From Botryllus schlosseri (Eukaryota), in the NCBI GenBank assembly GCA_051294905.1, contig CM119371.1, positions 7,814,001 to 7,874,000 on the forward strand: 60,000 nt of DNA. Direction: 5' to 3'. Under the pieces are notes generated by a model. The model was given only the letters and a program-made list of their open reading frames with translations. It did no database searches and was not told the origin of the DNA. A program made the position numbers and the translations under genes. Below are positions 43,014 through 60,000 of the stretch, one piece after another (the stretch's first letter is position 1; every line of letters begins with the position of its first letter).

Positions 43014-43120
43014 TTTGCGTCGGAATCGGTTCTTTACATTTTGTGTTTTCTTTATTAAAACCACTTTGTTTTACTTTGCCTGAATTCTACTGTTTGTATA
43101 TGATCGAAGGATTGTGAATT

Positions 43121-44500
43121 GTCCGGGATGTTGCTTAATGAACTTTGAAAATGGTACATAGGCGCGACTGGTAATCGCAATTTACGCGTATTGATAGGCC
43201 CACTTCAAAGTGATAGTTGGACATCGAGTCGGACCTAGAATTGTTCTAATTTACTTTTATATCAACGTTTATGATCATTGGAGTATATTAAAACCAGATT
43301 GGTACTCGGGAAACTGTCCGGAGTGTTGCTTAATGAACTTTGAAAATGGTACATAGCCGCGGCTGATAATCGCAATTTTCGCGTATTGATAGGCCCACTT
43401 CAAAGTGATAGTTGGACATCGTGTCGGACCTAGAATTGTTCTAATTTACTTTTATATCCACGTTTATGATCATTGGAGTATATTAAAACCAGATTGGTCC
43501 TCGGGAAACTGTCCGGGGTGTTGCTTAATGAACTTTGAAAATGGTACATAGGCGCGGCTGATAATCGCAATTTTCGCGTATTGATAGGCCCACTTCAAAG
43601 TGATAGTTGGACATCGTGTCGGACCTAGAATTGTTCTAATTTACTTTTATATCCACGTTTATGATCATTGGAGTATATTAAAACCAGATTGGTCCTCGGG
43701 AAACTGTCCGGGGTGTTGCTTAATGAACTTTGAAAATGGTACATAGGCGCGGCTGATAATCGCAATTTTCGCGTATTGATAGGCCCACTTCAAAGTGATA
43801 GTTGGACATCGTGTCGGACCTAGAATTGTTCTAATTTACTTTTATATCCACGTTTATGATCATTGGAGTATATTAAAACCAGATTGGTCCTCGGGAAACT
43901 GTCAGGGGTGTTGCTTAATGAACTTTGAAAATGGTACATAGGTGCGGCTGATAATCGCAATTTTCGCGTATTGATAGGCCCACTTTAAAGTGATAGTTGG
44001 ACATCGTGTCGGACCTAGAATTGTTCTAATTTACTTTTATATCCACGTTTATGATCATTGGAGTATATTAAAACCAGATTGGTTCTCGGGAAACTGTCCG
44101 GGGTGTTGCCTAATGAACTTTGAAAATGGTACATAGGCGCGGCTGATAATCGCAATTCACGCGTATTGATAGGCCAAATTCAAAGTGATAGTTGGACATC
44201 GTGTCGGACCTAGAATTGTTCTAATTTACTTTTATATCCACGTTTATGATCATTGGAGTATATTAAAACCAGATTGGTCCTCGGGAAACTGTCAGGGGTG
44301 TTGTTTAATGAACTTTGAAAATGGTACATAGGCGCGGCTGGTAATCGCAATTCACGCGTATTGATAGGCCAAATTCAAAGTGATAGTTGGACATCGTGTC
44401 GGACCTAGAATTGTTCTAATTTACTTTTATATCCATGTTAATGATCATTGGAGTATATTAAAACCAGATTGGTCCTCGGGAAACTGTCCGGGGTATTGCT
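43121..44500. repeat. Tandem array, 7 near-identical copies of a 195-bp unit
   Basis: Unit start GTC(C/A)GG at 43121, 43316, 43511, 43706, 43901, 44096, 44291 and a partial at 44486; only scattered substitutions, no indels. Confidence 0.97.
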
Positions 44501-45034
44501 AAATATGTTGACGCGCTACTCATCAGCGCAATTCATACATGACTTTTTTTATCGCTGTGGATGTGATTTCTGTTGACTTAAAACGACAGTGCTAGTATAT
44601 TCAGCTATATCTTAGTCGAGAAACTACTTATAATAGTCCTACTATTCTAGATTTATCACATTTTGTATTTCATGTTCATGGTGACTCATTTTTTATTTCC
44701 GTTGATATGACAATCGTGCTACGATGATAGCAGTATTTCATAGGTTGTCTTTGTCAAAGTTGCAAAGTATATGGCTTGTTGCTGTATTAAGCCGTGGATT
44801 GGATGGTAAGTATTGATGTATTTATTGTTCCTGTCTTCGTTGTAATATATCCGCCGAATCTGCAATGCGTCACTGGGTATAGTCGAACCTGAAGCAACTT
44901 AGTCGTATTCAGTCGGATACCGGTATATAGCGGGAACTGCCAAACGGCTGCAAATAGTGATCAAAGTTTACTGCGTATCCATTTGTATGTAGTTGTAGAT
45001 CATGTTGAAGTTGGTAATGCGTTAGTAGTCCTAG

Positions 45035-45591
45035 CAGGGTTGTAACCAAGTCACAAGGCTCCGAGTCACAAGTCAATCTCACTCTTATATTTCGACTCGA
45101 GTCAAGTCGAGTCATTTTCAATTCCCACCGAGTCAAGTCCGAGTCCAAGTCAGCGAACAGAGGATCGAGTCCGAGTCCAAGTCATTGTGTTGACTGCTCA
45201 GTTTCCATTTAAAGTCTTCCTAAACCCACTTTTTTAACTCTGTTTGGTGATATTGAATGGTTCGCATTTATAATATATCAATTTGCCTCACTTTTAGCAG
45301 TTTCTGGTCGCATTTTCAAGCACCAGTACCAACAAACGAAATCCCAATAGTGTGTTGGCTTCGAAATTACAATGAAATGTCGGTCTTCGCCGTCTGAATC
45401 TCGAGTCAATGACTTGCTTCGAGTCCTGCACAATGACTCGAGTCCAAGTCGAGTCAATTCACAGATTGACTCGAGTCTAGTCGAGTCATTTCCGTATTTT
45501 GAGAAAATGACTCGAGTCGAGTCGAGTCATCCAAAAATCGTGACTCGAGTCTGACTCGAGTCGAGTCATTACTCGAGTCATTACAACCCTG
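45035..45591. mobile_element. GACTC-rich hAT-type MITE inserted in the cassette
   Basis: TIRs CAGGGTTGTAA / TTACAACCCTG, TSD AGTCCTAG/AGTTCTAG. Confidence 0.85.
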
Positions 45592-45989
45592 AGTTCTAGA
45601 CGTTTCACAAGCTTCCTTGTTTTTATTTTGTACCGTACTGGGCAATGTTAAAGTGAAGTATTTATCCAACTGGAGGAATATTCATCCTGAGGTGATTGAA
45701 GAAACTTCAGCTTTAAAAAATATGGGATATCATGCTATACTCGAGTCTTTGATTCAAGATTTGAAAACCCTAGAAACATAAGGAACTGATGTAAATTTGT
45801 ATTTTACAGATATATATACTCAAGTTGTGGTACTTGTGAAATAAGTGCCCGGAGGTCTAGGCGGCAATAGTTGTTGCATCATAAAATGGGAGTGTTGTAG
45901 GATAGTAAGTGTTTTACATGTACATTGAAATGAGGGTGAAAAAATCACCAGGTCTGGTAAGGAACAAGTGAAAAAAATGACCCTGCCAT

Positions 45990-47078
45990 ATGAATAACAC
46001 GGGTTTAAAATATGAGAGAATCAGTAAATATGAGGTATCAAGAAAAAGAAGGTTTGACCCGCAAAGGACGGTAGAGAGTGGATGGACGCCACATACTGTC
46101 TTGTTTACTTGCGCAGATACGTGGGGAGGAACCTACAATGTGTTGAGTTTGATCGAATCGGGTGCGCTTCTCAACACACAAGACTGTGTGCTATTTCTGA
46201 GAAATCACGGGTTGTTGGTGCGAAGGATGAAATGCAAGCGATGTAGAAATATAATGAAAGAGGAAAATACTTCGACAGGCTACGATGGGTTTAGGTGGCG
46301 ATGCAACCCCTGTGATACTACGGCGACTATACGGAAACACTCGATATTCGCGGGAAGCAAGGTAGAACTTCCCAAATTATTAATATTGTTCTACTTTTGG
46401 GCCCATGACGCGTTGCAAACTCAAATTGCGCATGAAGCAGAGATTAGCCAGCGTTCAACGGTCACTTGGTGTGGCCGTTTGCGAAAGCTTTGTTCGGCCG
46501 AATTTCACAGGAAGAAACGACGTTTAGGAAGTGAAAAAGGCTGTGTGATCATTGATGAAACGCATTTAGCTAAGCGCCGGGCTGCCTCGGGTAAAGGACC
46601 AGCTGTTAAAGCCATTTGGGGGTTCGGAGGCATAGATAAAGCTACCGGAAAAATGTTCATAGAAATAACTTCCGACAGGACTGCTGAAGTATTCCGAAAA
46701 CTCATAGTAGAAAATGTGGCAGAAGGGTCCACAATTCTAACCGATGCCTACCCTTCCTACAGGGGCATAGAGAGCTGGGGGAAGGGTTATACACACGGTG
46801 TAGTGGACCACTCCCGTTGGTTTAAGGACCCTCGGACAGCTTTTTGTACTAATGAAATCGAAGGGGCCTGGGGACAGCTCAAATATCATTTACATAGGTC
46901 TCGTGGTTTAGCACGTCATCTTTTGGCCGATTACGTAGGGGAGTTTTTGTGGAAACGTCAACATCAAAAGACTGACCGATTCTTGGCACTCCTGCGTACC
47001 ATACACAATGACCCACAGTATAATTTTGATAAATTTGATGGGTCTCCTGTATTACCACCATTGGAAACCCCGCTATAG
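45990..47078 (+). CDS. Merlin / IS1595(IS1016)-family DDE transposase
   Basis: 362-aa open frame with Zn ribbon CKRC..WRCNPC, IRKHSIFAGSK, catalytic VIIDET, WGFGGIDK, ILTDAYPSY, HGVVDHS, TNEIEGAWGQLK and YVGEFLWK. The true start is uncertain (possible splice acceptor at 46116). Confidence 0.93.
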   Translation: MNNTGLKYERISKYEVSRKRRFDPQRTVESGWTPHTVLFTCADTWGGTYNVLSLIESGALLNTQDCVLFLRNHGLLVRRMKCKRCRNIMKEENTSTGYDGFRWRCNPCDTTATIRKHSIFAGSKVELPKLLILFYFWAHDALQTQIAHEAEISQRSTVTWCGRLRKLCSAEFHRKKRRLGSEKGCVIIDETHLAKRRAASGKGPAVKAIWGFGGIDKATGKMFIEITSDRTAEVFRKLIVENVAEGSTILTDAYPSYRGIESWGKGYTHGVVDHSRWFKDPRTAFCTNEIEGAWGQLKYHLHRSRGLARHLLADYVGEFLWKRQHQKTDRFLALLRTIHNDPQYNFDKFDGSPVLPPLETPL

Positions 47079-47163
47079 GGTTCTAGGACGGAAATGACGC
47101 TATCTGTTATTTTGTGTTTTTACAGACGTTAGTCTAGGGCTAGTGCGCGATTACATTTAATTT

Positions 47164-47307
47164 ATGACGTGGAAAGAATCACCACCACTATCCGTACCAT
47201 GGACCTCCTTCCTCATTCTCTGTCTATCCTTGTTGGTATCATTTGTACATCTGATTTGTTGCTGCATACGGCGGCGCAAGGCATGCGCGGACTCGCAGAT
47301 CCTGTAA
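47164..47307 (+). CDS. 47-aa single-TM micro-protein overlapping the glycoprotein start
   Basis: First ATG after the acceptor at 47125: MTWKESPPLSVPWTSFLILCLSLLVSFVHLICCCIRRRKACADSQIL*; hydrophobic helix, then CCC, then RRRK. Confidence 0.55.
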   Translation: MTWKESPPLSVPWTSFLILCLSLLVSFVHLICCCIRRRKACADSQIL

Positions 47308-49715
47308 CAAGTAGAGCACGATCTTTCACTCAGGGGACACTAGGTGAACTACGGGGACCCCTGCCTGATGAATGGGTCACTTTAAATGATACACAATGGG
47401 AGGACTATCACTTGATGAGCATATTCAATAAAACTGCGGAGCGACATGTATATAGACGGCCTGAGTTGTTTTACAGTAAGTCATTTGGTTACGTAGTGGC
47501 TGAGCGACTTTCGTTACAACAAATGGCGTTTCCACATGGAAGATATTGGTCAAGCGTACAAGAATTTGAACGCACTTGTCTATGTCAGCGGCGCCTGGGT
47601 CAAATCACGCCCAATATTTCCTATGATGTTCTTAAACAAACGAACATGTTCATACGTCCAATAGGATTTTATAGGATTCAGTGGTTCTGGAATGGGGACC
47701 AATACTTGTTTCATGACCTTGGCAGGAATTACTCCATGTTTGCTCTTACCAAATTTAAATTGATTATGATCCGACTATTCGAAAGTTACTCAGCTGTTGA
47801 AGCTTCATGCCGTCAAGAGCAAATGGGAGATCAGGACAAAGAAAAAATGAGTGAATTGAATAAGTATAATGCCAGTAGCAATAGTTTTACACAATGCTGG
47901 CATCTAGTACATAAAAACTACGCCTCCCACAGCACCTTTTGGCAAAAATTTCACTCCTGGAGGGAAGAAGGGATCATAATAGGAATCTGTACAAGGTGTA
48001 ATTTTAGAGGAGTGATTTCTGCCCTGGAACCAAATAAGGCAGATATAATCATCCAAGAAATAGTAATGACTACAGTAAGTGACTGGCAGTATGTGCGCAA
48101 TAAGTTGATACCATGCCGGGCCCAGGGGGGATGGATTAATCAGGACTGGTTTGCGCACTTATGGCCCAAGAATGCTGTAATAGCCCATTCGTGCAACTTC
48201 TGGCCAGGAATGAATACCACTCTATGGGGTGATCTACCAACGACAAATTTCCCTCCGAGAGTAAAATGGATACAACCGTCTTTTCCAAATGTGGATCATA
48301 GTGTGTATGCTAATCGTGGCAATCAGGGCATGAAGTGGAATAATCTTTTTGATGGTGAGCCGACTAGGTTTAAGGCATCTACATCAACATGGGTACCTTT
48401 TCCCAGGCCAATGTGGAAATTCTTCCCCTCTCTTACTGCGTCGGACATAGCATGTAAAAATAGAATATCACGTAACCAGGATTTGTGTCGCGACCCTGTG
48501 GGCGGACCCATTTTGAAGGCAGCATTTTGGGACCATGTTCATTTTGATCCGGAGCTAAACCGACCACGTTTCCCAGGAGGCCCAATAGAAATTAAGGGAG
48601 AGATAGTATCGAGTGAGAGTATCAAACGGGGTACGCGTGGAAGACGTAAAAGGTTTCTGTCCGGATTATTATGTCTAATATTCGGCCTGGTGTCAGCAGT
48701 AGCCGTCGTGGCGTCAGTTTCATCCCAATTGCATGAAGAAACGGTAGATCTGACCAGACAAATCAATGATAGAATGACGCAAGCTACGCAGAGGTCCACT
48801 GCACTAGGAAGGAAGATTAACGAGCTCTCTCGGCTCCAGATAGCTCAACAACAAAAATTGGACCAAACAGTGGCCACTATGGAAGTTAGGTCATCACTAG
48901 TAAATAAACGCCTAGTATTATTGGAAAAATACATAGAGAGGAATCGACAGATGATAGTAACACAAGCAACAGCCTCTTTGACCTCTTTTCAAAACTATAA
49001 AGAAATGAGTGATGCCGAACTAGCCATCGATCGATTGGTTTTAAATGAATTGGCTAATTTAACTGGCAAGTTAATATTTGACTCCAGCAAGGTATATCTC
49101 ACGAAAATCCGACAAGGAACGTTACGTATAAAAGAACATGCTCAACAATTCACAGCCTATAGAGACGCTTACATCAATGAGACGAATGACATCGGAGTGG
49201 AACTACGTGCTAATCGTATAGGTCTAGATCAAGCCCAACAAAATGTAGATTTCGGGTTGCAAGTTTGGAGAGAAGATCTGAATAAGAGTGTGTACATGAA
49301 CATTTCTGATTGGCGATATGAGAATATTACAGTGAAGCCTTTCGAATTTGTGGGAGGAAAAGAATTTATGAAGAACTTTGGCCAAACGATAGAAGAGATG
49401 GCACATGCTTCCGGAAGCTTGATAAAATCAGTTGGAGATAGTGCAGGAGATCTACTACAAGACGGATTAGGTGCGGTCGGAGGAATATTCAGTAAGGGAA
49501 TGAGCGGAATTTTTTCCGGCCTGGGGTCTGTTTTAATTCCAGTAATTTTGATATTGGGGGCTGGGATCATCTTGTTTTGTTGCTGTCGTTATAGCAGTCT
49601 TTGCTGTCCTAAGTTAAAACCTAAAGTACAAAGGCGAAACGCGAACACTCAGTTGACAATGTACATATCGTCGGTGCCTACCTACCCGAAAACAGCCAAA
49701 TCAACAAGGATGTAG
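47199..49715 (+). CDS. Viral-type class I fusion glycoprotein-like protein (838 aa from the ATG)
   Basis: ACCATGG start, signal-like N-terminus, many NxS/T sequons, multibasic RGRRKR then hydrophobic FLSGLLCLIFGLVSAVAVVASVS, long heptad region, Gly-rich amphipathic membrane-proximal segment, TM VLIPVILILGAGIILF, tail CCCRYSSLCCPK. Intronless. Confidence 0.8.
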   Translation: MDLLPHSLSILVGIICTSDLLLHTAAQGMRGLADPVTSRARSFTQGTLGELRGPLPDEWVTLNDTQWEDYHLMSIFNKTAERHVYRRPELFYSKSFGYVVAERLSLQQMAFPHGRYWSSVQEFERTCLCQRRLGQITPNISYDVLKQTNMFIRPIGFYRIQWFWNGDQYLFHDLGRNYSMFALTKFKLIMIRLFESYSAVEASCRQEQMGDQDKEKMSELNKYNASSNSFTQCWHLVHKNYASHSTFWQKFHSWREEGIIIGICTRCNFRGVISALEPNKADIIIQEIVMTTVSDWQYVRNKLIPCRAQGGWINQDWFAHLWPKNAVIAHSCNFWPGMNTTLWGDLPTTNFPPRVKWIQPSFPNVDHSVYANRGNQGMKWNNLFDGEPTRFKASTSTWVPFPRPMWKFFPSLTASDIACKNRISRNQDLCRDPVGGPILKAAFWDHVHFDPELNRPRFPGGPIEIKGEIVSSESIKRGTRGRRKRFLSGLLCLIFGLVSAVAVVASVSSQLHEETVDLTRQINDRMTQATQRSTALGRKINELSRLQIAQQQKLDQTVATMEVRSSLVNKRLVLLEKYIERNRQMIVTQATASLTSFQNYKEMSDAELAIDRLVLNELANLTGKLIFDSSKVYLTKIRQGTLRIKEHAQQFTAYRDAYINETNDIGVELRANRIGLDQAQQNVDFGLQVWREDLNKSVYMNISDWRYENITVKPFEFVGGKEFMKNFGQTIEEMAHASGSLIKSVGDSAGDLLQDGLGAVGGIFSKGMSGIFSGLGSVLIPVILILGAGIILFCCCRYSSLCCPKLKPKVQRRNANTQLTMYISSVPTYPKTAKSTRM

Positions 49716-49801
49716 TACATACATATGTACTAAAAGGGTTTTGCTTTTATAAAATTTAACTTTTCATAAGTTCACAGATATACTAACTAATTTATAATGA
49801 T

Positions 49802-52800
49802 ATGAACTGTTACCAGAAAATATGGATTGTGCTGACAGTATCTTTAATACTGCACCGAGGATATCTGCAAACTCATGGCGAATTATTGCCCCTATCTGCT
49901 ATGAGTGTAGTGCCCAGAATCACATTTAATCTTACAGGATGGACAACGTTCCGGTATCAAGGTCTCAGATACCTCCGCCTTAATCGGCTATTCAAATTAA
50001 ATGAGAGTTGGCCAATAGGTGAAACGGAAAATAATTTTCCAATACACGAAGAAACACCCGAATTTGGTCCAACACGAGCTGGCAAAGATCAATTGTATAA
50101 GTTATTTGCACCCTCAAGGACTGAGAGGCGGTATTGGAACAATGTAAGGCAATACGAAAGAGAATGCGGATGCAATCGAAAACTATCACGAGTATCTCCC
50201 GATATTATGTTATCGGCCTTGACCAGAACCATAACGTATCGACGGAAAAATAATTTCGGATTAATACATACATGGAAATATGTTGTAGGGCGGGAATCAA
50301 GTTTTCCAATAGTCGTTCCTAGAAATCTCCGTCGAGTAATCTCTCCAAATACAACCCCAGAAGTTACTATACACCAGCTGTTGACCGTTTACAAGTTATC
50401 AGTGATGAACCACTTGGCACAATATGCAACAGTAACAGCAAGGTGTCGACAACATTCGGAAGGAATCGAGGGGTGGAAGGTCAACAAAGGCGAATTTAGT
50501 GTATGTATATTCGAAAATACTAGCGGAATGCAATGTATAGGATGTGCATTTTATACAGACAATCGGGCAGTAAATACACTGTCCAGGGAATTTGTGTTCA
50601 TGGAAATAGATAACAGCATTAGAGGACTAGGAACAAGAATGCAAGAAACCTATTCCTACAGTCAATGGCCAGCAGGAGTCAAACTACCCAGATTACATCA
50701 CGACATCGTGTGGTTAAAGGCTCGAAATGAAACCGGGCCCAGAGAGAGGCCAGCAAACTTTGATGGTCATACTTGGTTTAGATTGAGGATTTACGCCCTT
50801 CGCGAACATCTAAATAATGAAACTCAACGGATAATGGGAAGGAAAAATTTTCCGACTATGTTGCTAGGCAGCATAGAATGTGAACGCAAGAAAAATAGGA
50901 AAGTTTGCCGTAATGCAATAGGAAGTTTGAAGACGGCTTTGGCCTTTAAGGAAGTGTTATATGACCCATACACAAACCAATCCGTGTATGCAGATCATAG
51001 CAATGGTCGATTAAAAATTGCATCTCCAAGACCTACAGGTCAGGAACCTCCACTCGAGGCATGGCCCAATAATCTATCGTATTGTAAACAACCCGGGAGA
51101 TTAGGCAATTTTGTTCTGACTGCATCACTTCAAAACAATGGACAAAACACAAAAAATATGGATTACTATCTAGCCCGCCTAGGAATGTTTTATGTAGAAA
51201 TAACGAAAAGACGTTTACGCCAGTTGTCGCTTCCCATATACAAAAAGCGAAAAAATCTAGAGAGGCTGGAAAGACCAATAACAATAGCTGACATGGCTTC
51301 TTTAAGTCAGGAACTAGGATCAATATTGACGCAACGGAAACTGAGTAGGGTAAACGAGGGGCTATTAAGCTACATGTCGACGAAAAAATTGAGAGAGGCG
51401 CCACTTCAAGACGATATGCGGCTATTTCGACCTAGCGTTGCCTACAAAGCTATAATATGTGCGGGTATATTGGTATATACACCTTATGCCTATAAGGAGA
51501 ATATCAAAATGAATACGAACTCCGCACGGCCATCAAGTTTTGCAAAAGTAATAACATCAAGGCCTATCAATCATGAAGATACCACTCGAATGGCGGTCCC
51601 CAATAGCGAGTCTAGCACAGTGTATAATTTCACTCCTATTAATATAAGTCAACAACCAACTATGAGAACGGGGGAAACCATCACAAACACTGAGGGGAGT
51701 GTAAGAATGACGAATCAATACGATACTAACCGCTATAACTACGATTATATAGAAGATTATGACGAAGGATTTAGCTATGACGGATATGACAATAATACTA
51801 GTTTTCAAGACTCTGGAAATTACTACTATGACTACTATGACGAAGACGGAGAATATGAGGGTTCACTTAAACGTAGGCCCCTACCCGTAGCTGATACTAC
51901 GGATTCCACAAATATTATTGAAACTACAATGGTGTTACCGATGATTGAAGCTCCAACATCGACTAAAAATACTCAATATGCAATCAAGTTAACAACGGAT
52001 ACAACAATTCCAACGCCAGGAACGTCTGCATATACGTCAGGTAGTATTACGTCCCCACGAACAACTACTGCGATCACACCATATACCAGAGGGTTGGCAT
52101 CGGCCATTATCAATTCCGGAACGACTTCATCGACACCGCTTCCAGCCATATTAACAACTGTGCATTCCTCGCGAGAAGATAACACCAGCCCAAGATCAAC
52201 TGCATCTATTTCTACATTCTTAGCTACAGTGAAAACTATGAGTGAACAAGAAAGACGTGGGACGAGCCCCACAACTATATTCACAACTTTGAAACTGTCT
52301 ACATCTATATCAACAGAGATGGACGTTCAGAAAAACATTGGTATTGCTACGACAGGACTCACCTTTTCCAAAAGTAAGTTAACAACGCTTACAACAATGG
52401 AGAGAACGGCAAACGCACAGTTACAATGGAATACCATGGCTTATCAAGGATCCACAAAAAACGGTGAAATGTTAGGCTCCATACCCGTGCCAATAAAGAA
52501 AACACCCCAGATTACGCAAATACCTGAGTCTTATATACAATTAAGTCATCACACAAGTCAACTCATGGACACAACATCGCCTATAGCGCATTTCAAAATG
52601 TTGCTGGATACAACACCAGTAGCAACGACGGTTGAAACGCACCAATATTTCGTCACCAGCAAGTCCCGCTCTAATACAGAACCAGATAATTCAAGCAGAG
52701 AGCAAGATATACAGGTAAGAACTAAATCAACATCAATGCTTTCATCAGGGGATTATCAGAGCGAACCCACATCAGTAAGTAAAAATGATGTGATCAGAAG

Positions 52801-53209
52801 TTGGAAGAGTACTTCCAATAGTGCACTTTCTTCAATTACGCCCGCTGTCAAAGAAGAAGGAAAAACTACACTCAGTATACCGCATACCTTACCTACGGCC
52901 AAATATGACAGACTGGACCGAATTACATTTGACTTCTATGGACAATTGCACAAACTACAAAAAATGGAACAAGGATATGCAGAAGGTAGAATTATTGTTG
53001 ATATTAACAATAGAAAGGATTTAGAAGAATCACTTAACAATCATGCCCTGATTTTTGCGGTTAGCGTCACAGCAATGTTAGGATGCATGTATTTATGTTA
53101 TGCGAAATGTGGGAGAGTCGCTTCAAAAAATTATCTTAGGGAGGTTATTCGACGGAATAACCGAAAAACGTATATTACAGCAGTAACGTTGCACGAAAAA
53201 CAGAGATAG
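49802..53209 (+). CDS. Type I membrane glycoprotein with paralogous head domain and mucin-like stalk (1135 aa)
   Basis: Signal peptide, Cys-containing N-terminal domain alignable by eye to the upstream glycoprotein, Tyr/Asp-rich segment, long Thr/Ser-rich region, TM LIFAVSVTAMLGCMYLCYA, basic tail. Intronless. Confidence 0.8.
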   Translation: MNCYQKIWIVLTVSLILHRGYLQTHGELLPLSAMSVVPRITFNLTGWTTFRYQGLRYLRLNRLFKLNESWPIGETENNFPIHEETPEFGPTRAGKDQLYKLFAPSRTERRYWNNVRQYERECGCNRKLSRVSPDIMLSALTRTITYRRKNNFGLIHTWKYVVGRESSFPIVVPRNLRRVISPNTTPEVTIHQLLTVYKLSVMNHLAQYATVTARCRQHSEGIEGWKVNKGEFSVCIFENTSGMQCIGCAFYTDNRAVNTLSREFVFMEIDNSIRGLGTRMQETYSYSQWPAGVKLPRLHHDIVWLKARNETGPRERPANFDGHTWFRLRIYALREHLNNETQRIMGRKNFPTMLLGSIECERKKNRKVCRNAIGSLKTALAFKEVLYDPYTNQSVYADHSNGRLKIASPRPTGQEPPLEAWPNNLSYCKQPGRLGNFVLTASLQNNGQNTKNMDYYLARLGMFYVEITKRRLRQLSLPIYKKRKNLERLERPITIADMASLSQELGSILTQRKLSRVNEGLLSYMSTKKLREAPLQDDMRLFRPSVAYKAIICAGILVYTPYAYKENIKMNTNSARPSSFAKVITSRPINHEDTTRMAVPNSESSTVYNFTPINISQQPTMRTGETITNTEGSVRMTNQYDTNRYNYDYIEDYDEGFSYDGYDNNTSFQDSGNYYYDYYDEDGEYEGSLKRRPLPVADTTDSTNIIETTMVLPMIEAPTSTKNTQYAIKLTTDTTIPTPGTSAYTSGSITSPRTTTAITPYTRGLASAIINSGTTSSTPLPAILTTVHSSREDNTSPRSTASISTFLATVKTMSEQERRGTSPTTIFTTLKLSTSISTEMDVQKNIGIATTGLTFSKSKLTTLTTMERTANAQLQWNTMAYQGSTKNGEMLGSIPVPIKKTPQITQIPESYIQLSHHTSQLMDTTSPIAHFKMLLDTTPVATTVETHQYFVTSKSRSNTEPDNSSREQDIQVRTKSTSMLSSGDYQSEPTSVSKNDVIRSWKSTSNSALSSITPAVKEEGKTTLSIPHTLPTAKYDRLDRITFDFYGQLHKLQKMEQGYAEGRIIVDINNRKDLEESLNNHALIFAVSVTAMLGCMYLCYAKCGRVASKNYLREVIRRNNRKTYITAVTLHEKQR

Positions 53210-56200
53210 GTATTGCAAAATAATTACTGAATTATTGTAATAATAGAAGTGAGTGTTGTTACGTGTTGTGTTCGGTCCGTTTGCGCGGTTTAGAGTCCAT
53301 GTGAAATTTACCAAAACCTAAATTTAATTTTATTGAGATAACAATGTGTAAAATTTATGCTGTGTTTGCCTATGGAGGCCTAAAAGTGTGTGGGGTTTGA
53401 GAATGTACGAGGCAAATTCGCAGTATTAACGATGCTTATGCAACGAATATCATTGCGAAATACATAATTGCGAAATTTTTGGATGGTATTGCTAAGCCAA
53501 CTCAGGACTGAGTAATACCTCAGTTTGTAAAACATGGAAGCGGATGGCGTTATTTTTGTAAAATATAGCCATAAATGATGGTGGGAAAGGAAACGTTGCA
53601 GTGGTAAATTGACTCATAGGAAATAATTGACTACAGCAAAATGGCGAAATTTGACTGCTATTGGGGGTTTAATCACGCTGTAGTACGAATGGTAGCGACA
53701 AAAATTTGCTAGATGAATGTTCGGATGTGCGTCAGTCCCTACTTTATGGAGATAGGGAATTGCTCCTGGTGAGGGGGGCGGATGTATGTGTGTCAACGAC
53801 CTTCCGCTCAAAACTGGATATAACTCGGGGCGCAGGATCAAAAAATTCAGTTCACTCTACACAGAGCTGAACGGGCATGAAGAATCTAGAAAGTTAACAG
53901 AGTTGACTAAGATTATGACAAGTTAGTCAGATCTTATAGACAATGACTGTTGTACTTGATAGATAATAATTAGTTTATGCCATGCGGATGGATAAATGCA
54001 AGATGTCATCTTAAGGGCTGTCGCGTTATAATTTTGTTAAATTTAACAGATTGATGTTGGATATTGATCTGATATAGCCACAGCATTTGGGGTCGAGCAG
54101 TGTGGCTAATCCAGGATTGGGGTACACTGCCGATAACTGGGCTATTAATCTCTTGATTGTTTTCGGTCAAATACCATGGAATGGTGGGGCATATAAGCAA
54201 CAATATAAAAATATTATTAAAGGCGTCATAGTAATATAAATGTCTGAACGGCTGACATCATCACATCGTTGGAGCGTACCACTGCGGTATTCAGTAGCCA
54301 GTACCTTTAAGTGGCCTTAATAACAGGGATATAAGGACCCACGATGTAACTAAAAATGGCCAATTGTTGACATAAAGACTTGCTTAGATAGCGGAGTACC
54401 AAGCTACTACCATCTGATCTAATACTATTCCCTATGAGACGTGAACAGTTAGTTGTCCCTATATTTATGACCAAGTTACGGCGTTCCAAGTCAACTTGAG
54501 TCATTCTCATTTTGTCATCGAGTCTGCCTGAATCCGAGTAATTCTACGCGGGTTCGCGTCCAAATCACAATAGACTTACAAATTTCAGTCATGAATCATC
54601 TAAGGATCCGGATTTATCTTCATAAAATAGAATTGTGGCAAAATATTGAATCTTTACCGCATGGTAGTGTTTGCAATTGATGTGATAGTTAATTTTGATA
54701 AATAATCTCAGACTCTCGGAGCAATTTGAGAAGGAATTTTAACTTCTTAACATAAAAAGATATATGTCTGTCACTTACAAATTGTCAAATACTTGAAATT
54801 CTAAAATGTCTTCGCGGGCCGCACAGAATAATCTGGCGGGCCGCGTGTTTGAGATCTCTGAGTAAACCAAAACACTTGCAGCGACATAAATGGACGCTCG
54901 TAACCGCAAGTACTATAGACCGCAAATCGTAATTTTGCACGACCATATGTGATGTCACAATAAATCAGTGTACGTACATGGTACCTTTAGATTACTAGTA
55001 GGCATATACAATACACACCCAACGGGCACGATAACGCACTTCAAATCAATGCATGCGCTCAATGTAGGCCTACCGCGTCAAAATACTGATGTGCCGTCTT
55101 CCGCAATGCACTCATTACTACCAAGATAAATAGTAATTTATAATGATACATATATTCAAGTCTGACTGAAGCAAGAACAATAACATTGTGGGACGTTATC
55201 GACTTGACATTCTAGTTTAAACAAATCGAATAAAATCAAAATTGATGCTGCTGTGAACCTGATTTAACGTTGCGCAGTTGAAGCATATTTCGATCAACGT
55301 TTTCAACAATATTGGTGTTTGTAATTAAATCGGCGCCTGGTAAAATTTCGATAGTACAAAAAAGAACTGATGCTCACTTTTCTATAAAGGGGAGAGAGAA
55401 AATTAACGGGACATTCATAACTATGATTATATTCACTCGCTGCGCGGATATCTCTACTATACAAAATAAATTCTAAACACTCGATCACTCATAATGTCGC
55501 CTGTGTCTAAAAAAAAAAAGTATGGCTGATTCCTGCTAAAGACGTTTGCAAATACAATCATTTGCGGCAAATAAGGACGGTAGATTTGGAATTTTAAAGT
55601 TTATAGAATCAGCCTGCGGTCGACGCGTCTTGCTACCGTAGCTGTTCCTCACATACACTAAATATAACAATATTGGTTAGCATAAGTAACTACTGTAAAA
55701 GTGGTAATTTCAAGCGGCAGTGGCACAATCACCAACCTATTGAGTATCGAAGCTGCCTCTCATTGTATACCGCGCACTGCACAAGGTTGACAATAACATT
55801 AAGACTACAAGAAAATGCCAATAATTTTATAGTGTGTGCTAATGTACATAATTCCATGGTCTCTCGAGTCACTGGCCTCAAGCGATTTGGGTTGGCCTGA
55901 TTTGACCAATCATTCAATGACAATGCGCTTTGTTGGGCATATATTTGACATAGCGTCACGAATATATGGATCGCGGGCTAAGGGAAAAAAATTACGGACA
56001 ATGCTAGCGTAAACTATAGCGTTCTATTAAATCCTTTATTTCGGTTTGATAAAACAAACTAAGAACGGTGCGTTTACTAAAATGGATTATTAATTTACTT
56101 ATATGTGAACCATACACCGCATTATCTGTGTACCTATTTAACGATGTATATTCATGGGTCAGATGCCAGCGACCACTCGATCTGTATTGCAAAAACCTGA

Positions 56201-56699
56201 TAGAGTACAATGATGTAATTACGTCTTATGCCTGGTAAAGGCAATTCGATTTGAATCTTGGTTTGACTCGAGTCGCCGTCAGTAATTAGTTGCCTTGACT
56301 GGACTCGATCAAAAGAGGCAGTGATTCGAAATGACTCATGACTCGAATGTTATGCCTAGTTTCATCATTTGCAATTTAATATTAATGATTTAAAGTACAG
56401 TATTAGGATTGAGACACAACCAATAAGAATCTTAAATCAAAATGGTTTTTTGATATGGAATGTGTTTTGACCCTGACTGGCTACGCTACTTCAATTACTG
56501 CATTCGATACATTATGGTAGTTATTTACGTCAGGTAAGGAATTCTGCTTCAGGAAATCTGAGCTATCACATGAATAACTAGCTTAAAACAAGCCTTATAA
56601 CTATATGTACCTTATAACATCTAACTAGACCATTGGGTTAGGCTGACGACTAAAATGAATTGTGACATCGCAACTAAGTGGAATACAATATTACATTTG

Positions 56700-59270
56700 A
56701 GACAATACGGTATATATACCTACCTTGGTGATAACTGGCTTTTGGCTCAGGGTAATCCGGGGTTGGTACATCCTATATATTCCGTTGGAAAGGTATACCC
56801 TTTGCAAATTCTGGTATCTCCCAAAAATTAAGGTTATCCCGGTTGAGAAACACTTGCTTCTAGGTTCAAAATTAACTAAGCTTATAAATACAACTAGCCT
56901 AGTCTGACCAAACTTAAACATTGCGCTCTAAGTAATTCAATAACACGCGGTTGCCACAAACGAAGACGAGTCGCATAAATAGCTTCATGTACTGTCAAAC
57001 TCATATTACGCTACGAGCCGGATAATAGTTGAATAATAACAATTCTGCTCAAGACGCAAAGTGATTAATCCACTTCAATGTTTTAAGCCACTAGTACTAT
57101 AATATTGGAACCGTTCTCGAAGCTCCCTTAGGTGAAGATTGCTAATATGGACCTGGTATCTAAATCTGTGTGACAGGAGCCATCCCAATTACTTGGTCCT
57201 TGTAGAATGTCTTAAATGATGGAACAATACTTGGGGTGAGTCTAGTTATGCGCATTCGTATATATAAATATGACAAGATCAAGTATATTTCAGGTCAAAG
57301 TGCGTTCCCATTAACACAATAATGATCTATATACTGGACATTGCTTTGTTGTTTTTTTAGTAACTAGGGCTCGCGCAAACGCTGGTTATGTGCGCTCGGT
57401 GACTTGATACGAGAATTTAAAAGATCGCAACGAAATGATGACATTGATTTGGATTTAATATTAGTGTTTCTATTTTCACAATAATCTATCCGCACATGCT
57501 CAATAATACTATTCAGTACTACCAGAGGTGATTACGACGCTGCAATGATCCAGCTACAGAGGCGAAAGGGATGTTCCTATAATCTGTCTGCGAAAGGCCG
57601 CGTACAACGAATTAATTTTGTAAAAATAATAAATTGTATCAGAATTAGACACTTGCGTTTCGCTCTAGTTTAGTGGAATTGGACGACTTGACAATTCCGA
57701 CATCAGATTTGCACTGCACCACGCGCAGGTTCATCTTGGCATGTAAGCGGTAAGGAGTATCAAGAACCTCATACCGTAGGCCGCTGTGCATATTCTATTG
57801 TCGTTAATTTACCTAACTCATGACGGAGAATCAATTGCAAACGCATGGGCTATACTGGATTAATAAATGGATAGTCTAAACGAAACAGATATCAATTTCG
57901 ACATGAAAGTTATTTTAATACTGGCTGACTGCGTCACTTTATTTACTAGAATTACCGAATTGCGTTTTATTAATTTAGGGTAAGAAGCAGTGTGGAGATG
58001 ACTCGAGTCACTTGGGAAAAATATATTGACTCGTGTCTCGAAGCAAAATTTACGATTCAATATCAAGTCATAAAATAAACGGGTGTCGAATAAATCACTG
58101 TAGCGTGCGTATACTTGAATGGCTGTGTCAGATCATAAATAAATTGACCGTAAATGAAACAATCACGGCTGACGCTGTCGTGGTAGTTATCGTTTTGTTT
58201 CATTAGAAGGCTCAATGCTTACGTTGTGCAGTGCGTATCCGTCTATATTTTGGTCAATAATGACTGGCTGTAGCATTTAGCTTTACAATCGCTCACGTAT
58301 TTTACTTGCGCGTGACTGATACAACATCTTTTTGCATGTATAGTTAACTACATATTGGTTATTCAATTCAATGTGGATACCGAAATATTAATTTGACTTG
58401 AATTGTGATTTGACTTGTAACTTGACTTGGCTTGATCCTATTAAGGGTCTGCCATGACTCGGGATGACTCGGGACTCAAAGGGAATCGATCTCAACACTG
58501 GTTTATCGCCGACTAGTAAATGATTAGGATACATATCACAATCAAAGGGTATACATTGTCACACTAAAATAATATTCTACCAAGTTGCTAGCTCGTCTGT
58601 GTGTTAATCTATACTGAACCATAAACCTATCTTTACAATAACTGGTCTTCGGCTCATTGTATTACGGAACTGGTACATCCCTGTAAATCCTATTCGAAGG
58701 TTACACCATGTTGCCAGTTCTGGTACATCCCATAGTACGTGGTAAAACGAGCTCTTGTCCATAATTCTAAAACTAAAATTGCTTTGTCTTAGCTAAACCC
58801 TGAAGCCATAATGCGACGCCAAGCATATACGACAGCAGGGACGAGTCGCATAAATGACTTCCTTAATTGACAAACTCGTACTGCATTGCGAGGCGAATGT
58901 TATTGATTACTGACAATTGTGTACGTTACAAACTATAAGAGCTATGAAATTGTAAACCTACTGTAAGTCATGACAAACCTCGGCTTTGACAAATCGTACC
59001 GTTTTCAAACCTTTCTCGCGTACTGAAATACTGTTCAGAAATAAGTGTGCTTGCTGGTGCCATATTAGGAATGTTCATTTTAAAGTTAGTGCGTCGGTAA
59101 CCTCTGCAATATTAACTCAAATATATTCTGATTGTCAGGACATGATTATAATTCACCAGAAATTGTTGTGCGGGTATGGAGATTTGTATGACGGGAGCTG
59201 CCTCCGTCAGTTGGTCCATCCAAAATAGTTGAAATAATGGAAAAATTGCTTGAGGCAGTTCTAATTATAC
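56700..59270 (-). repeat. Diverged direct duplication (about 1.9-2 kb spacing) with exon-like blocks
   Basis: 56725-56830 resembles 58635-58740, 56965-57030 resembles 58840-58910, 57150-57240 resembles 59170-59260. Confidence 0.55.
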
Positions 59271-60000
59271 GTGTTCATTGATAAGAATAACAATAAACGA
59301 CATGATTTTTTACGCTAGGCATTTTTGATTAAATTAATATAGGGGCAATAAGCAGAAATAAGACGTGAAAGGTATTTTCCCATATCACGTTTTAACTATA
59401 GTATATTTGCTTATATATAAGTACGATTGAGAGCAAAAGGCAAAGTGTGTGTCCGTAATGGAAGGGATCAAATTGGACAAATATTTTTAAAATAGAAGGA
59501 AAATTGGCCAGATTCAAATCTTCTCAATTAAATAAATAGATTACAAAATATTACTTAGCAAGCTTGGACAAGGGTGGATGTGCTTGCCGCAGTGTCCATT
59601 AGTAAGTATGCAGAGCAGGTTTTTTTTGAGCTATGATTGCATGTCTACATCTACAAAAGAGAGTTTTAAGTATTGTTGAAGACGGCGTAGGAGTTAGACA
59701 GATACTTCGACAGACTAAACGCTGGCCCGCTAATATTAGACAATTGTGAGAAATTTTTATTATCAGAGATAAAGGACAGGATACTCTTATAATGGTTTTT
59801 TGGCTTCTGCGGGTAGTAAAAACTACATTTTTGAGTTGGATTTTGCAGGGGTAGTTACTCGAAACAGATTGGTTTTGTGGAAAAGATGAATAGTTCATTG
59901 ATAGAGTATTAGTATTGGTGACACAGACTATTTAAAAACATAAAAATGAGTGTCGTTCTATATCAGTACAAAATAATGTACTAAGTAGCAGTGCGCGTCG

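Follow-up and report, generated by a model that had tools for sequence, protein, structure and literature searches.

A hidden reading frame, very probably coding for a small membrane protein, overlaps the start of a fusogen-like gene in a multi-copy element of Botryllus schlosseri

Results

The locus described here lies in a stretch of 60,000 nucleotides (nt) from the tunicate Botryllus schlosseri (GenBank assembly GCA_051294905.1, contig CM119371.1, positions 7,814,001 to 7,874,000 of the forward strand). This stretch is called the window below, and positions are counted from its first letter. Its right-hand part is occupied by a multi-copy element that carries, among other genes, an 838-codon open reading frame (ORF) for a fusogen-like glycoprotein (Table 1). 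Overlapping the start of this gene is a micro-ORF of 47 codons with the translation MTWKESPPLSVPWTSFLILCLSLLVSFVHLICCCIRRRKACADSQIL. Its ATG at 47164-47166 stands in the context tttATGa (T at -3, A at +4) and its stop is the TAA at 47305-47307; it is not extendable upstream because an in-frame TAA stands two codons before the ATG. The fusogen ATG follows 35 nt further 3', at 47199-47201, in the context accATGg (A at -3, G at +4). Given this distance between the starts, the two frames differ, with an offset of 2 mod 3 and an overlap of 109 nt. An earlier sequence-only reading of the window had described a weak ATG ahead of the strong fusogen ATG in another frame, which the sequence bears out.

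The 495-Mb genome assembly was searched with the 838-residue protein as query. This search scored 54 matches, with identities ranging between 98% and 34%. The 5' ends were read in 40 of these 54 fusogen matches (L001-L040); the 14 matches outside this count were eight further full-length copies, two fragments keeping the gene start and four fragments without it. With the 35% lineage as query, a second genome search revealed one further lineage of nine copies (L053-L061), all of which were read. A micro-ORF of 44-47 codons in the same relative frame was kept in 46 of the resulting 49 copies, in lineages down to 34-39% fusogen identity, and the offset between micro-ORF and fusogen was 2 mod 3 in every one of the 49. 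Lineage A (L001-L037; 98-59% fusogen identity) comprised 37 copies, 34 of them intact, with micro-ORFs of 46-47 codons, an ATG spacing of 32 or 35 nt and, in the intact copies, a stop at one common position. The three copies of the 35% lineage (L038-L040; 34-35% fusogen identity) were all intact with 47 codons; here the fusogen ATG sits elsewhere, at a spacing of 59 nt, and the relative frame is unchanged. All nine copies of lineage D (L053-L061) were likewise intact (44-47 codons; spacing 32 nt). Conservation of the ATG, frame, length and stop in diverged homologues, proposed beforehand as a check on the micro-ORF, was thus found in 46/49 copies.

As a control we followed three other alternative-frame ORFs that begin with ATG (27-42 codons) in the fusogen gene of the window. 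They were kept in 2/7, 0/7 and 0/7 diverged full-length copies. The micro-ORF exceeds chance. The longest of the controls, a 42-codon frame at 47536-47664, was intact in 17/17 close copies and in 2/7 diverged ones, and is probably a chance ORF.

Selection was evaluated from the codon phase of substitutions. For each alignment column, parsimony changes were counted on a tree for which only downstream sequence was used. Within the overlap, the first position of a fusogen codon corresponds to the third of a micro-ORF codon, and the third fusogen position to the second of the micro-ORF. For lineage A (35 distinct sequences) the overlap of 103 nt (35, 34 and 34 sites) was compared with the next 356 nt. 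Downstream, fusogen positions 1, 2 and 3 carried 96 (0.81 per site), 63 (0.53 per site) and 401 changes (3.37 per site), respectively, while the corresponding figures in the overlap were 102 (2.91 per site), 45 (1.32 per site) and 20 (0.59 per site; chi-square p = 2.6e-42). Fusogen third positions were therefore suppressed 5.7-fold in the overlap, and the majority of changes there fell on micro-ORF third positions, so that the phase flips to the micro-ORF frame. The same was seen in a profile along the whole gene, based on 25 full-length genes and leaving out two copies shortened by stops and the 35% copy. Codons 1-36 were the sole 36-codon window with fewer third-position than first-position changes, and held the third-position minimum (0.44, against a gene-wide median of 2.72).

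Lineage D served as an independent replicate. Its nine copies showed 45, 24 and 15 changes at fusogen positions 1, 2 and 3 in the overlap and 35, 21 and 99 downstream, which is the same phase flip (p = 8.7e-11). In addition, the non-overlapped 29 nt located 5' of the fusogen ATG in this lineage carried 17, 4 and 6 changes on micro-ORF positions 3, 1 and 2 (p = 7e-4). Reduced synonymous variation of the fusogen, the second check proposed for the micro-ORF, was accordingly found, and the suppression lies exactly over the overlap. On this pattern of substitution the micro-ORF is very probably a protein-coding gene under selection.

Next we considered the protein that the micro-ORF would encode. 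In the window copy, Kyte-Doolittle hydropathy averaged over 19 residues peaks at 2.77 (residues 17-35), and there are five cysteines, three of them consecutive and followed by RRRK. The predicted layout is single-pass, with an N-terminus of 13-16 residues, a helix at about residues 14-35, CCC, RRRK and a tail of eight residues. Fourteen aligned representatives, ranging from 96% down to 27% identity to the window protein, were compared. M1, P8 and W13 are invariant among them, and all 14 have one 19-residue hydropathy window of at least 2.07 and at least one cysteine where the helix ends on its C-terminal side; in total they contain 1 to 5 cysteines. Three or four K/R residues directly follow the helix in 13/14 representatives; ahead of the helix the net charge ranges from -2 to +1, and the tail measures 8-12 residues and ends on a hydrophobic residue. 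The hydrophobic helix, the length, the cysteine and the charge layout are kept even at 27-33% identity. The combination of a transmembrane helix, three cysteines and RRRK that had been read from the sequence hence describes the window copy well, but not the family, for which at least one cysteine and a cluster of 3-4 K/R are typical.

Because basic residues lie C-terminal of the helix, the positive-inside rule predicts an N-terminus in the lumen or exterior and a C-terminus in the cytosol. The micro-ORF product is most likely a single-pass membrane protein of 44-47 residues with a hydrophobic helix of about 20 residues, a predicted topology as above and putative acylation. Pfam contained no family for the micro-protein, giving only TMIE at E 0.1, below the cut-off of that family. 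A profile of the 14 sequences run against 5.8 billion proteins had 0 matches at E ≤1 among 313 candidates, and none among proteins of 24-83 residues. The best score in the ESM Atlas, 0.77 for a bacterial inner-membrane cluster, was below the useful level. Since no relatives were present in the databases searched, the micro-protein would define a family of its own, made up of minute viral membrane proteins. A prediction of a four-copy homo-oligomer scored 0.01; run without controls, it is evidence neither way.

The start contexts and the sequence immediately upstream were compared in all copies. Wherever the upstream ATG is kept, its -3 base is a pyrimidine and its +4 base A or C (48/48 copies: 36/36 in lineage A, 3/3 in the 35% lineage and 9/9 in lineage D), and in no copy does an ATG occur between the two starts. 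At the fusogen ATG, +4 was G in 36/36 copies of lineage A and 9/9 of lineage D (45 copies), and in the 35% lineage -3 was a purine in 3/3 copies. The bicistronic arrangement with leaky scanning that the sequence-only reading had suggested is thus supported in its layout, which fits every copy (weak first ATG, no intervening ATG, and G at +4 or a purine at -3 for the fusogen). Further upstream, a polypyrimidine tract ending in CAG, resembling a splice acceptor, is found in every lineage about 38-45 nt before the micro-ORF, with a divergent spacer separating it from the ATG; in the window copy, no ATG stands between this motif and the micro-ORF start. The GTAAGT at 45905 is the sole GTRAGT from the left end of the element to the acceptor-like site. 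As a candidate, splicing from 45905 to this site would excise the transposase ORF that precedes the micro-ORF and would leave the second exon with the micro-ORF ATG as its first AUG. Four RNA-seq runs gave 12, 18, 0 and 0 reads on positions 45700-53400; these were partial alignments with no joints and too little depth to be of use, and they say nothing on expression or splicing.

Genomic context

Table 1. Features of the locus, in window coordinates.
Feature	Position	Strand	Remarks
Left target-site duplication (8 base pairs, bp), CAAGTTGT	45821..45828	+	identical 8 bases directly after the right end of the element
Multi-copy element, left 14.2 kb	45829..60000	+	34,068 bp in all; 19,896 bp lie past the window end
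GTAAGT, candidate splice donor	45905..45910	+	present in L001-L020
ISXO2/IS1595-like DDE transposase ORF, 362 codons	45990..47078	+	directly 5' of the micro-ORF; Pfam PF12762, E 5.8e-11
Polypyrimidine tract ending in CAG, candidate 3' splice site	47105..47125	+	38 nt 5' of the micro-ORF ATG
Micro-ORF, 47 codons + TAA	47164..47307	+	based on sequence, 46/49 intact copies, codon-phase selection and protein features
Micro-ORF/fusogen overlap	47199..47307	+	first 36 fusogen codons (signal-peptide-like N-terminus); third-position changes 0.44-0.59/site
Fusogen-like glycoprotein ORF, 838 codons	47199..49715	+	hydrophobic N-terminus, R-x-x-R|F at 482-486, long helices, C-terminal anchor, Cys-rich tail
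Second glycoprotein-like ORF, 1135 codons	49802..53209	+	Ser/Thr-rich region, C-terminal anchor

The larger gene of the overlapping pair has the architecture of a class I fusogen, i.e. a basic cleavage site, an adjoining hydrophobic fusion peptide and a C-terminal anchor. R482, R485 and F486 were invariant in 12 fusogen sequences down to 33% identity, and a hydrophobic stretch follows directly. Sequence searches with the protein against Pfam and the Protein Data Bank (PDB) gave no match. AlphaFold was useless with 12 sequences (pLDDT, its per-residue confidence measure, 34.8), and with 51 sequences returned a model of mean pLDDT 67 with helices at 487-601 and 651-694. Foldseek found nothing for this model at E 0.001 or better; the VIA fold rows included gp41 (Z 8.5) and coronavirus S2 cores (Z 6.7-7.0), amid many unrelated coiled coils of equal Z. 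Relatives of the fusogen were absent from phage records, and neither the 38 pattern matches in viral contigs nor the 327 in metagenome contigs were confirmed. A profile search identified 52 related proteins in other assemblies; the 10 of them that were looked up were without names.

The N-terminal part of the second glycoprotein is paralogous to the fusogen (BLASTP E 2e-9; 29% identity over 134 residues). At 49760-49802 a pyrimidine-rich stretch ends in CAG about 27 nt 5' of the second glycoprotein gene, and a two-codon mini-ORF, ATG-ATA-TGA, overlaps the ATG of this gene.

The element that contains these genes has a left boundary at 45829 that was sharp in 20/20 copies, and its copies are collinear throughout, including the part beyond the window. 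A second copy of the element carries AACCCCAG on both flanks, so that an 8-bp duplication was present in 2/2 copies checked. By eye, the element termini agree at only 10/14 inverted positions. Long terminal repeats (LTRs) were not found: neither the left 400 nt nor the right 497 nt match anything else in the element, and the 18-nt left terminus occurs a single time. The element genes all lie on the + strand: two transposases, two glycoproteins, a leucine-rich repeat membrane protein, a ubiquitin-conjugating enzyme E2 (E 5e-47), a Gag-like protein with a CCHC knuckle, and a Pol with reverse transcriptase and RNase H. The second transposase is again IS1595-like (E 5.9e-18). No integrase domain was among the domains found in the element genes. 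Duplications of 8 bp at the target site are typical of the IS1595/Merlin family, and the element appears to integrate by a DDE transposase. We found in the literature no description of a 34-kb element combining Gag-Pol, two glycoproteins and IS1595-like transposases, nor of such an overlapping ORF in retroelements.

The C-terminus of the transposase lies 5' of the micro-ORF in 27/29 diverged loci, which include all lineages. Given that this holds for lineages at about 35% fusogen identity, the order transposase, micro-ORF, fusogen is old. In other assemblies, protein P0007, a 791-residue relative of the fusogen, and protein P0062, a 220-residue relative of the transposase, each come from a 7067-nt contig of the same collection. 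The two may lie on one contig, in which case the same gene linkage would exist outside this genome.

Several further features were observed in and around the element. The C-terminal 207 residues of Pol (L051:3-626) match the Tpt1/KptA RNA 2'-phosphotransferase (PF01885, E 7.3e-11), an unusual domain in a retroelement polyprotein. The ORF-free stretch 3' of the second glycoprotein gene contains, nested at 53950-55484, a different repeat that also occurs alone at many sites. Just outside the left end of the element, at 45035-45591, lies an unrelated, very abundant repeat of about 560 bp with GACTCGAGTC-rich inverted ends; scoring among 5012 candidates gave at least 40 copies, with identities of 89-96%. 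Further left, at 43117-44586, seven tandem units follow one another with a period of 195 bp. They resemble each other at 93-97%, save for the final one (75%), and each carries a 39-codon ORF on the minus strand.

Discussion

The data presented here argue that the 5' end of a fusogen-like gene in B. schlosseri hides a second gene in another frame. We propose that both genes would be served by a single mRNA, in which a 5' exon is probably joined to the acceptor-like site lying some 40 nt before the micro-ORF. Part of the ribosomes would initiate at the first, weak AUG and make the small membrane protein, and the remaining ones would scan on and initiate 32-59 nt further at the fusogen AUG. Such leaky scanning on a shared mRNA is fairly probable. 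Most likely the micro-protein would act as a small membrane accessory in the compartment that also houses the two glycoproteins. There it may take part in or regulate their maturation, their trafficking or fusion, or it may behave like a viroporin; class I viroporins, which are single-pass (M2, Vpu, E, SH), form ion-conducting bundles of helices from identical subunits. This glycoprotein-linked accessory or viroporin role is put forward tentatively. Taken together, a coding gene, leaky scanning and an accessory role form a statement that we hold to be quite likely, with the weight on its first two parts.

Several points weigh against this reading. All 49 copies come from one genome. The micro-ORF is lost in three of them: L021 has ATA in place of its ATG, L023 has a premature TAA plus an upstream extension of the micro-ORF, and in L033 the frame is cut by a premature stop. 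These 3/49 losses are as expected in decaying copies, and they show that the micro-ORF is not needed once a copy is inserted. For lineage A, micro-ORF positions 3, 1 and 2 changed 31, 26 and 24 times, respectively, in the 10 codons 5' of the fusogen ATG, a stretch blurred by a 3-nt indel; as this phase bias is slight, the micro-protein N-terminus is weakly constrained there. Copies of the 35% lineage have a single K/R after the helix and no basic cluster. The succession of a weak and a strong context is not absolute, since the fusogen ATG has a pyrimidine at -3 in 12/36 copies of lineage A. Moreover, the label fusogen is given from architecture alone, without a family or fold match, and the absence of a homologue or family for the micro-protein leaves no hint of its function. 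Translation, the shared mRNA, topology, acylation and function are inferred from sequence.

Among the other explanations, the one that survives best is a regulatory upstream ORF, a frame that only throttles or times fusogen translation and whose peptide is functionless. Ribosomes starting at the first AUG cannot make the fusogen, so such a frame could throttle it. From what is known of scanning, including an excerpt of PMC6337239, an upstream ATG that overlaps the main ORF by itself lowers downstream initiation, and the weak context of the upstream ATG is conserved. A regulatory upstream ORF needs an ATG and a stop only, however, whereas the codon phase in two lineages points to selection on the amino-acid sequence, and the length, helix, cysteine and charge layout outlast a divergence to 27-33% identity. 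That the frame acts by regulation and nothing else is thus improbable, although a regulatory effect and a coding function can coexist.

The micro-ORF could also be the true N-terminus or signal sequence of the fusogen, joined to it by frameshifting or by a splice near the micro-ORF end. Its helix is indeed more hydrophobic and better conserved than the one in the other frame. Yet the micro-ORF stop is fixed in lineage A, its length stays at 44-47 codons in all lineages, and the fusogen frame possesses, in each of the lineages, an ATG and a hydrophobic N-terminus that belong to it alone, differently placed in the 35% lineage. Inspection of the alignment by eye revealed neither a slippery heptamer nor a conserved GT donor near the micro-ORF end, and the basic cluster after the helix is on the wrong side for a cleavable signal peptide. 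We therefore regard a fused N-terminus as very improbable.

Hardly credible, finally, is a chance by-product of T-rich signal-peptide codons, or a conserved RNA element instead of a protein: micro-ORF first positions are fusogen second positions, T-rich in hydrophobic codons and so favouring Leu, Phe, Ser and Cys, but fusogen wobble positions are suppressed in the overlap only, the variable positions are those of micro-ORF wobble, and the control ORFs in alternative frames are unconserved. The sequence-only reading had itself named this by-product as the explanation to fall back on if the ATG or the frame proved unconserved; both are conserved, and the codon phase rejects it. A structured RNA was tried as a candidate with RNAalifold and rejected (-8.1 kcal/mol over 207 columns, compensatory change in 2/21 pairs; no Rfam family).

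A selected small membrane protein encoded across a glycoprotein start has counterparts in several viruses. For HIV-1, an excerpt of PMC6337239 describes Vpu and Env as products of bicistronic spliced mRNAs translated by leaky scanning, the first AUG, that of vpu, being in a poor context so that most ribosomes reach the env AUG, and the splice acceptor lying 5' of the small ORF and not of env. The locus in B. schlosseri shares with vpu/env a small, N-terminally anchored, single-pass ORF that starts before the glycoprotein and overlaps it in another frame, with a weak first AUG and no intervening AUG, and the element likewise has Gag-like and reverse transcriptase/RNase H proteins. In contrast to HIV-1, the ATGs here are 32-59 nt apart, the micro-ORF lies mostly inside the glycoprotein gene, and the host is a tunicate element that apparently integrates by a DDE transposase. 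Vpu has about 80 residues, of which a cytoplasmic domain of about 50 comprises two helices and a phospho-degron. The micro-protein has 44-47 residues and yielded no Vpu match in the Pfam search; with a tail of about 8-12 residues, Vpu-type cytoplasmic helices and a phospho-degron are impossible in it.

Influenza B virus makes NB and NA from one mRNA with close AUGs in different frames and overlapping ORFs. NB, with its N-terminus outside, has about 100 residues and is glycosylated, and its AUG precedes that of NA by 4 nt. There is no homology between NB/NA and the genes described here, and the setting is an RNA virus segment there and an integrated element here. Arteriviruses encode small hydrophobic envelope proteins in ORFs that overlap glycoprotein genes (E/GP2 and ORF5a/GP5), and coronavirus E consists of a single helix followed by palmitoylated juxtamembrane cysteines. 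These arterivirus and coronavirus proteins differ from the micro-protein in having 43-110 residues, conserved motifs of their own and nested subgenomic RNAs; the micro-protein had no Pfam match to them at E up to 1 and no relative among proteins of 24-83 residues.

FAST proteins of reoviruses are single-pass proteins with the N-terminus outside, a juxtamembrane polybasic cluster and acylation. These proteins (p10, p14, p15 and others) are fusogens of non-enveloped viruses, about 95-200 residues long, with ecto- and endodomains. The single helix followed by a polybasic cluster (K+R 3-4 in 13/14 representatives) is shared with the micro-protein. The latter differs from them in being about half as large as the smallest of them, in lacking an N-terminal Met-Gly that could be myristoylated, and in its position beside a separate large class-I-like fusogen gene in an integrated element. 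Translation of FAST proteins from polycistronic mRNAs with leaky scanning is described in an excerpt of PMC2978376. The comparison with FAST and arterivirus proteins that had been drawn in the sequence-only reading therefore stands as an analogy in layout, but no homology was found. Judged by its layout, the arrangement, which defines a way of expressing two genes and not a family of proteins, is of a known kind, exemplified by Vpu/Env, NB/NA and arterivirus E/GP2; the protein family is new as far as the searches reach, and the host element seems to be new as well.

A broader reading would make the micro-protein an obligatory third envelope component, a 45-residue acylated partner next to a fusogen and a mucin-like attachment protein. 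The three would belong to an undescribed 34-kb class of tunicate retrovirus-like elements with Gag and reverse transcriptase/RNase H but without a retroviral integrase or LTRs, integrated by an IS1595/Merlin-type DDE enzyme that leaves 8-bp duplications. We consider this combination rather unlikely at present.

The locus, part of an endogenous virus-like element in an invertebrate chordate, provides a clean and statistically strong case of a hidden overlapping gene of a size that usual ORF-length cut-offs miss. It indicates that the design of a small membrane protein overlapping an envelope start, with translation probably by leaky scanning, arose also in a quite different kind of element. If the element is as it seems, it would be relevant to the ways in which retroelements swap the machinery for their integration and gain envelopes.

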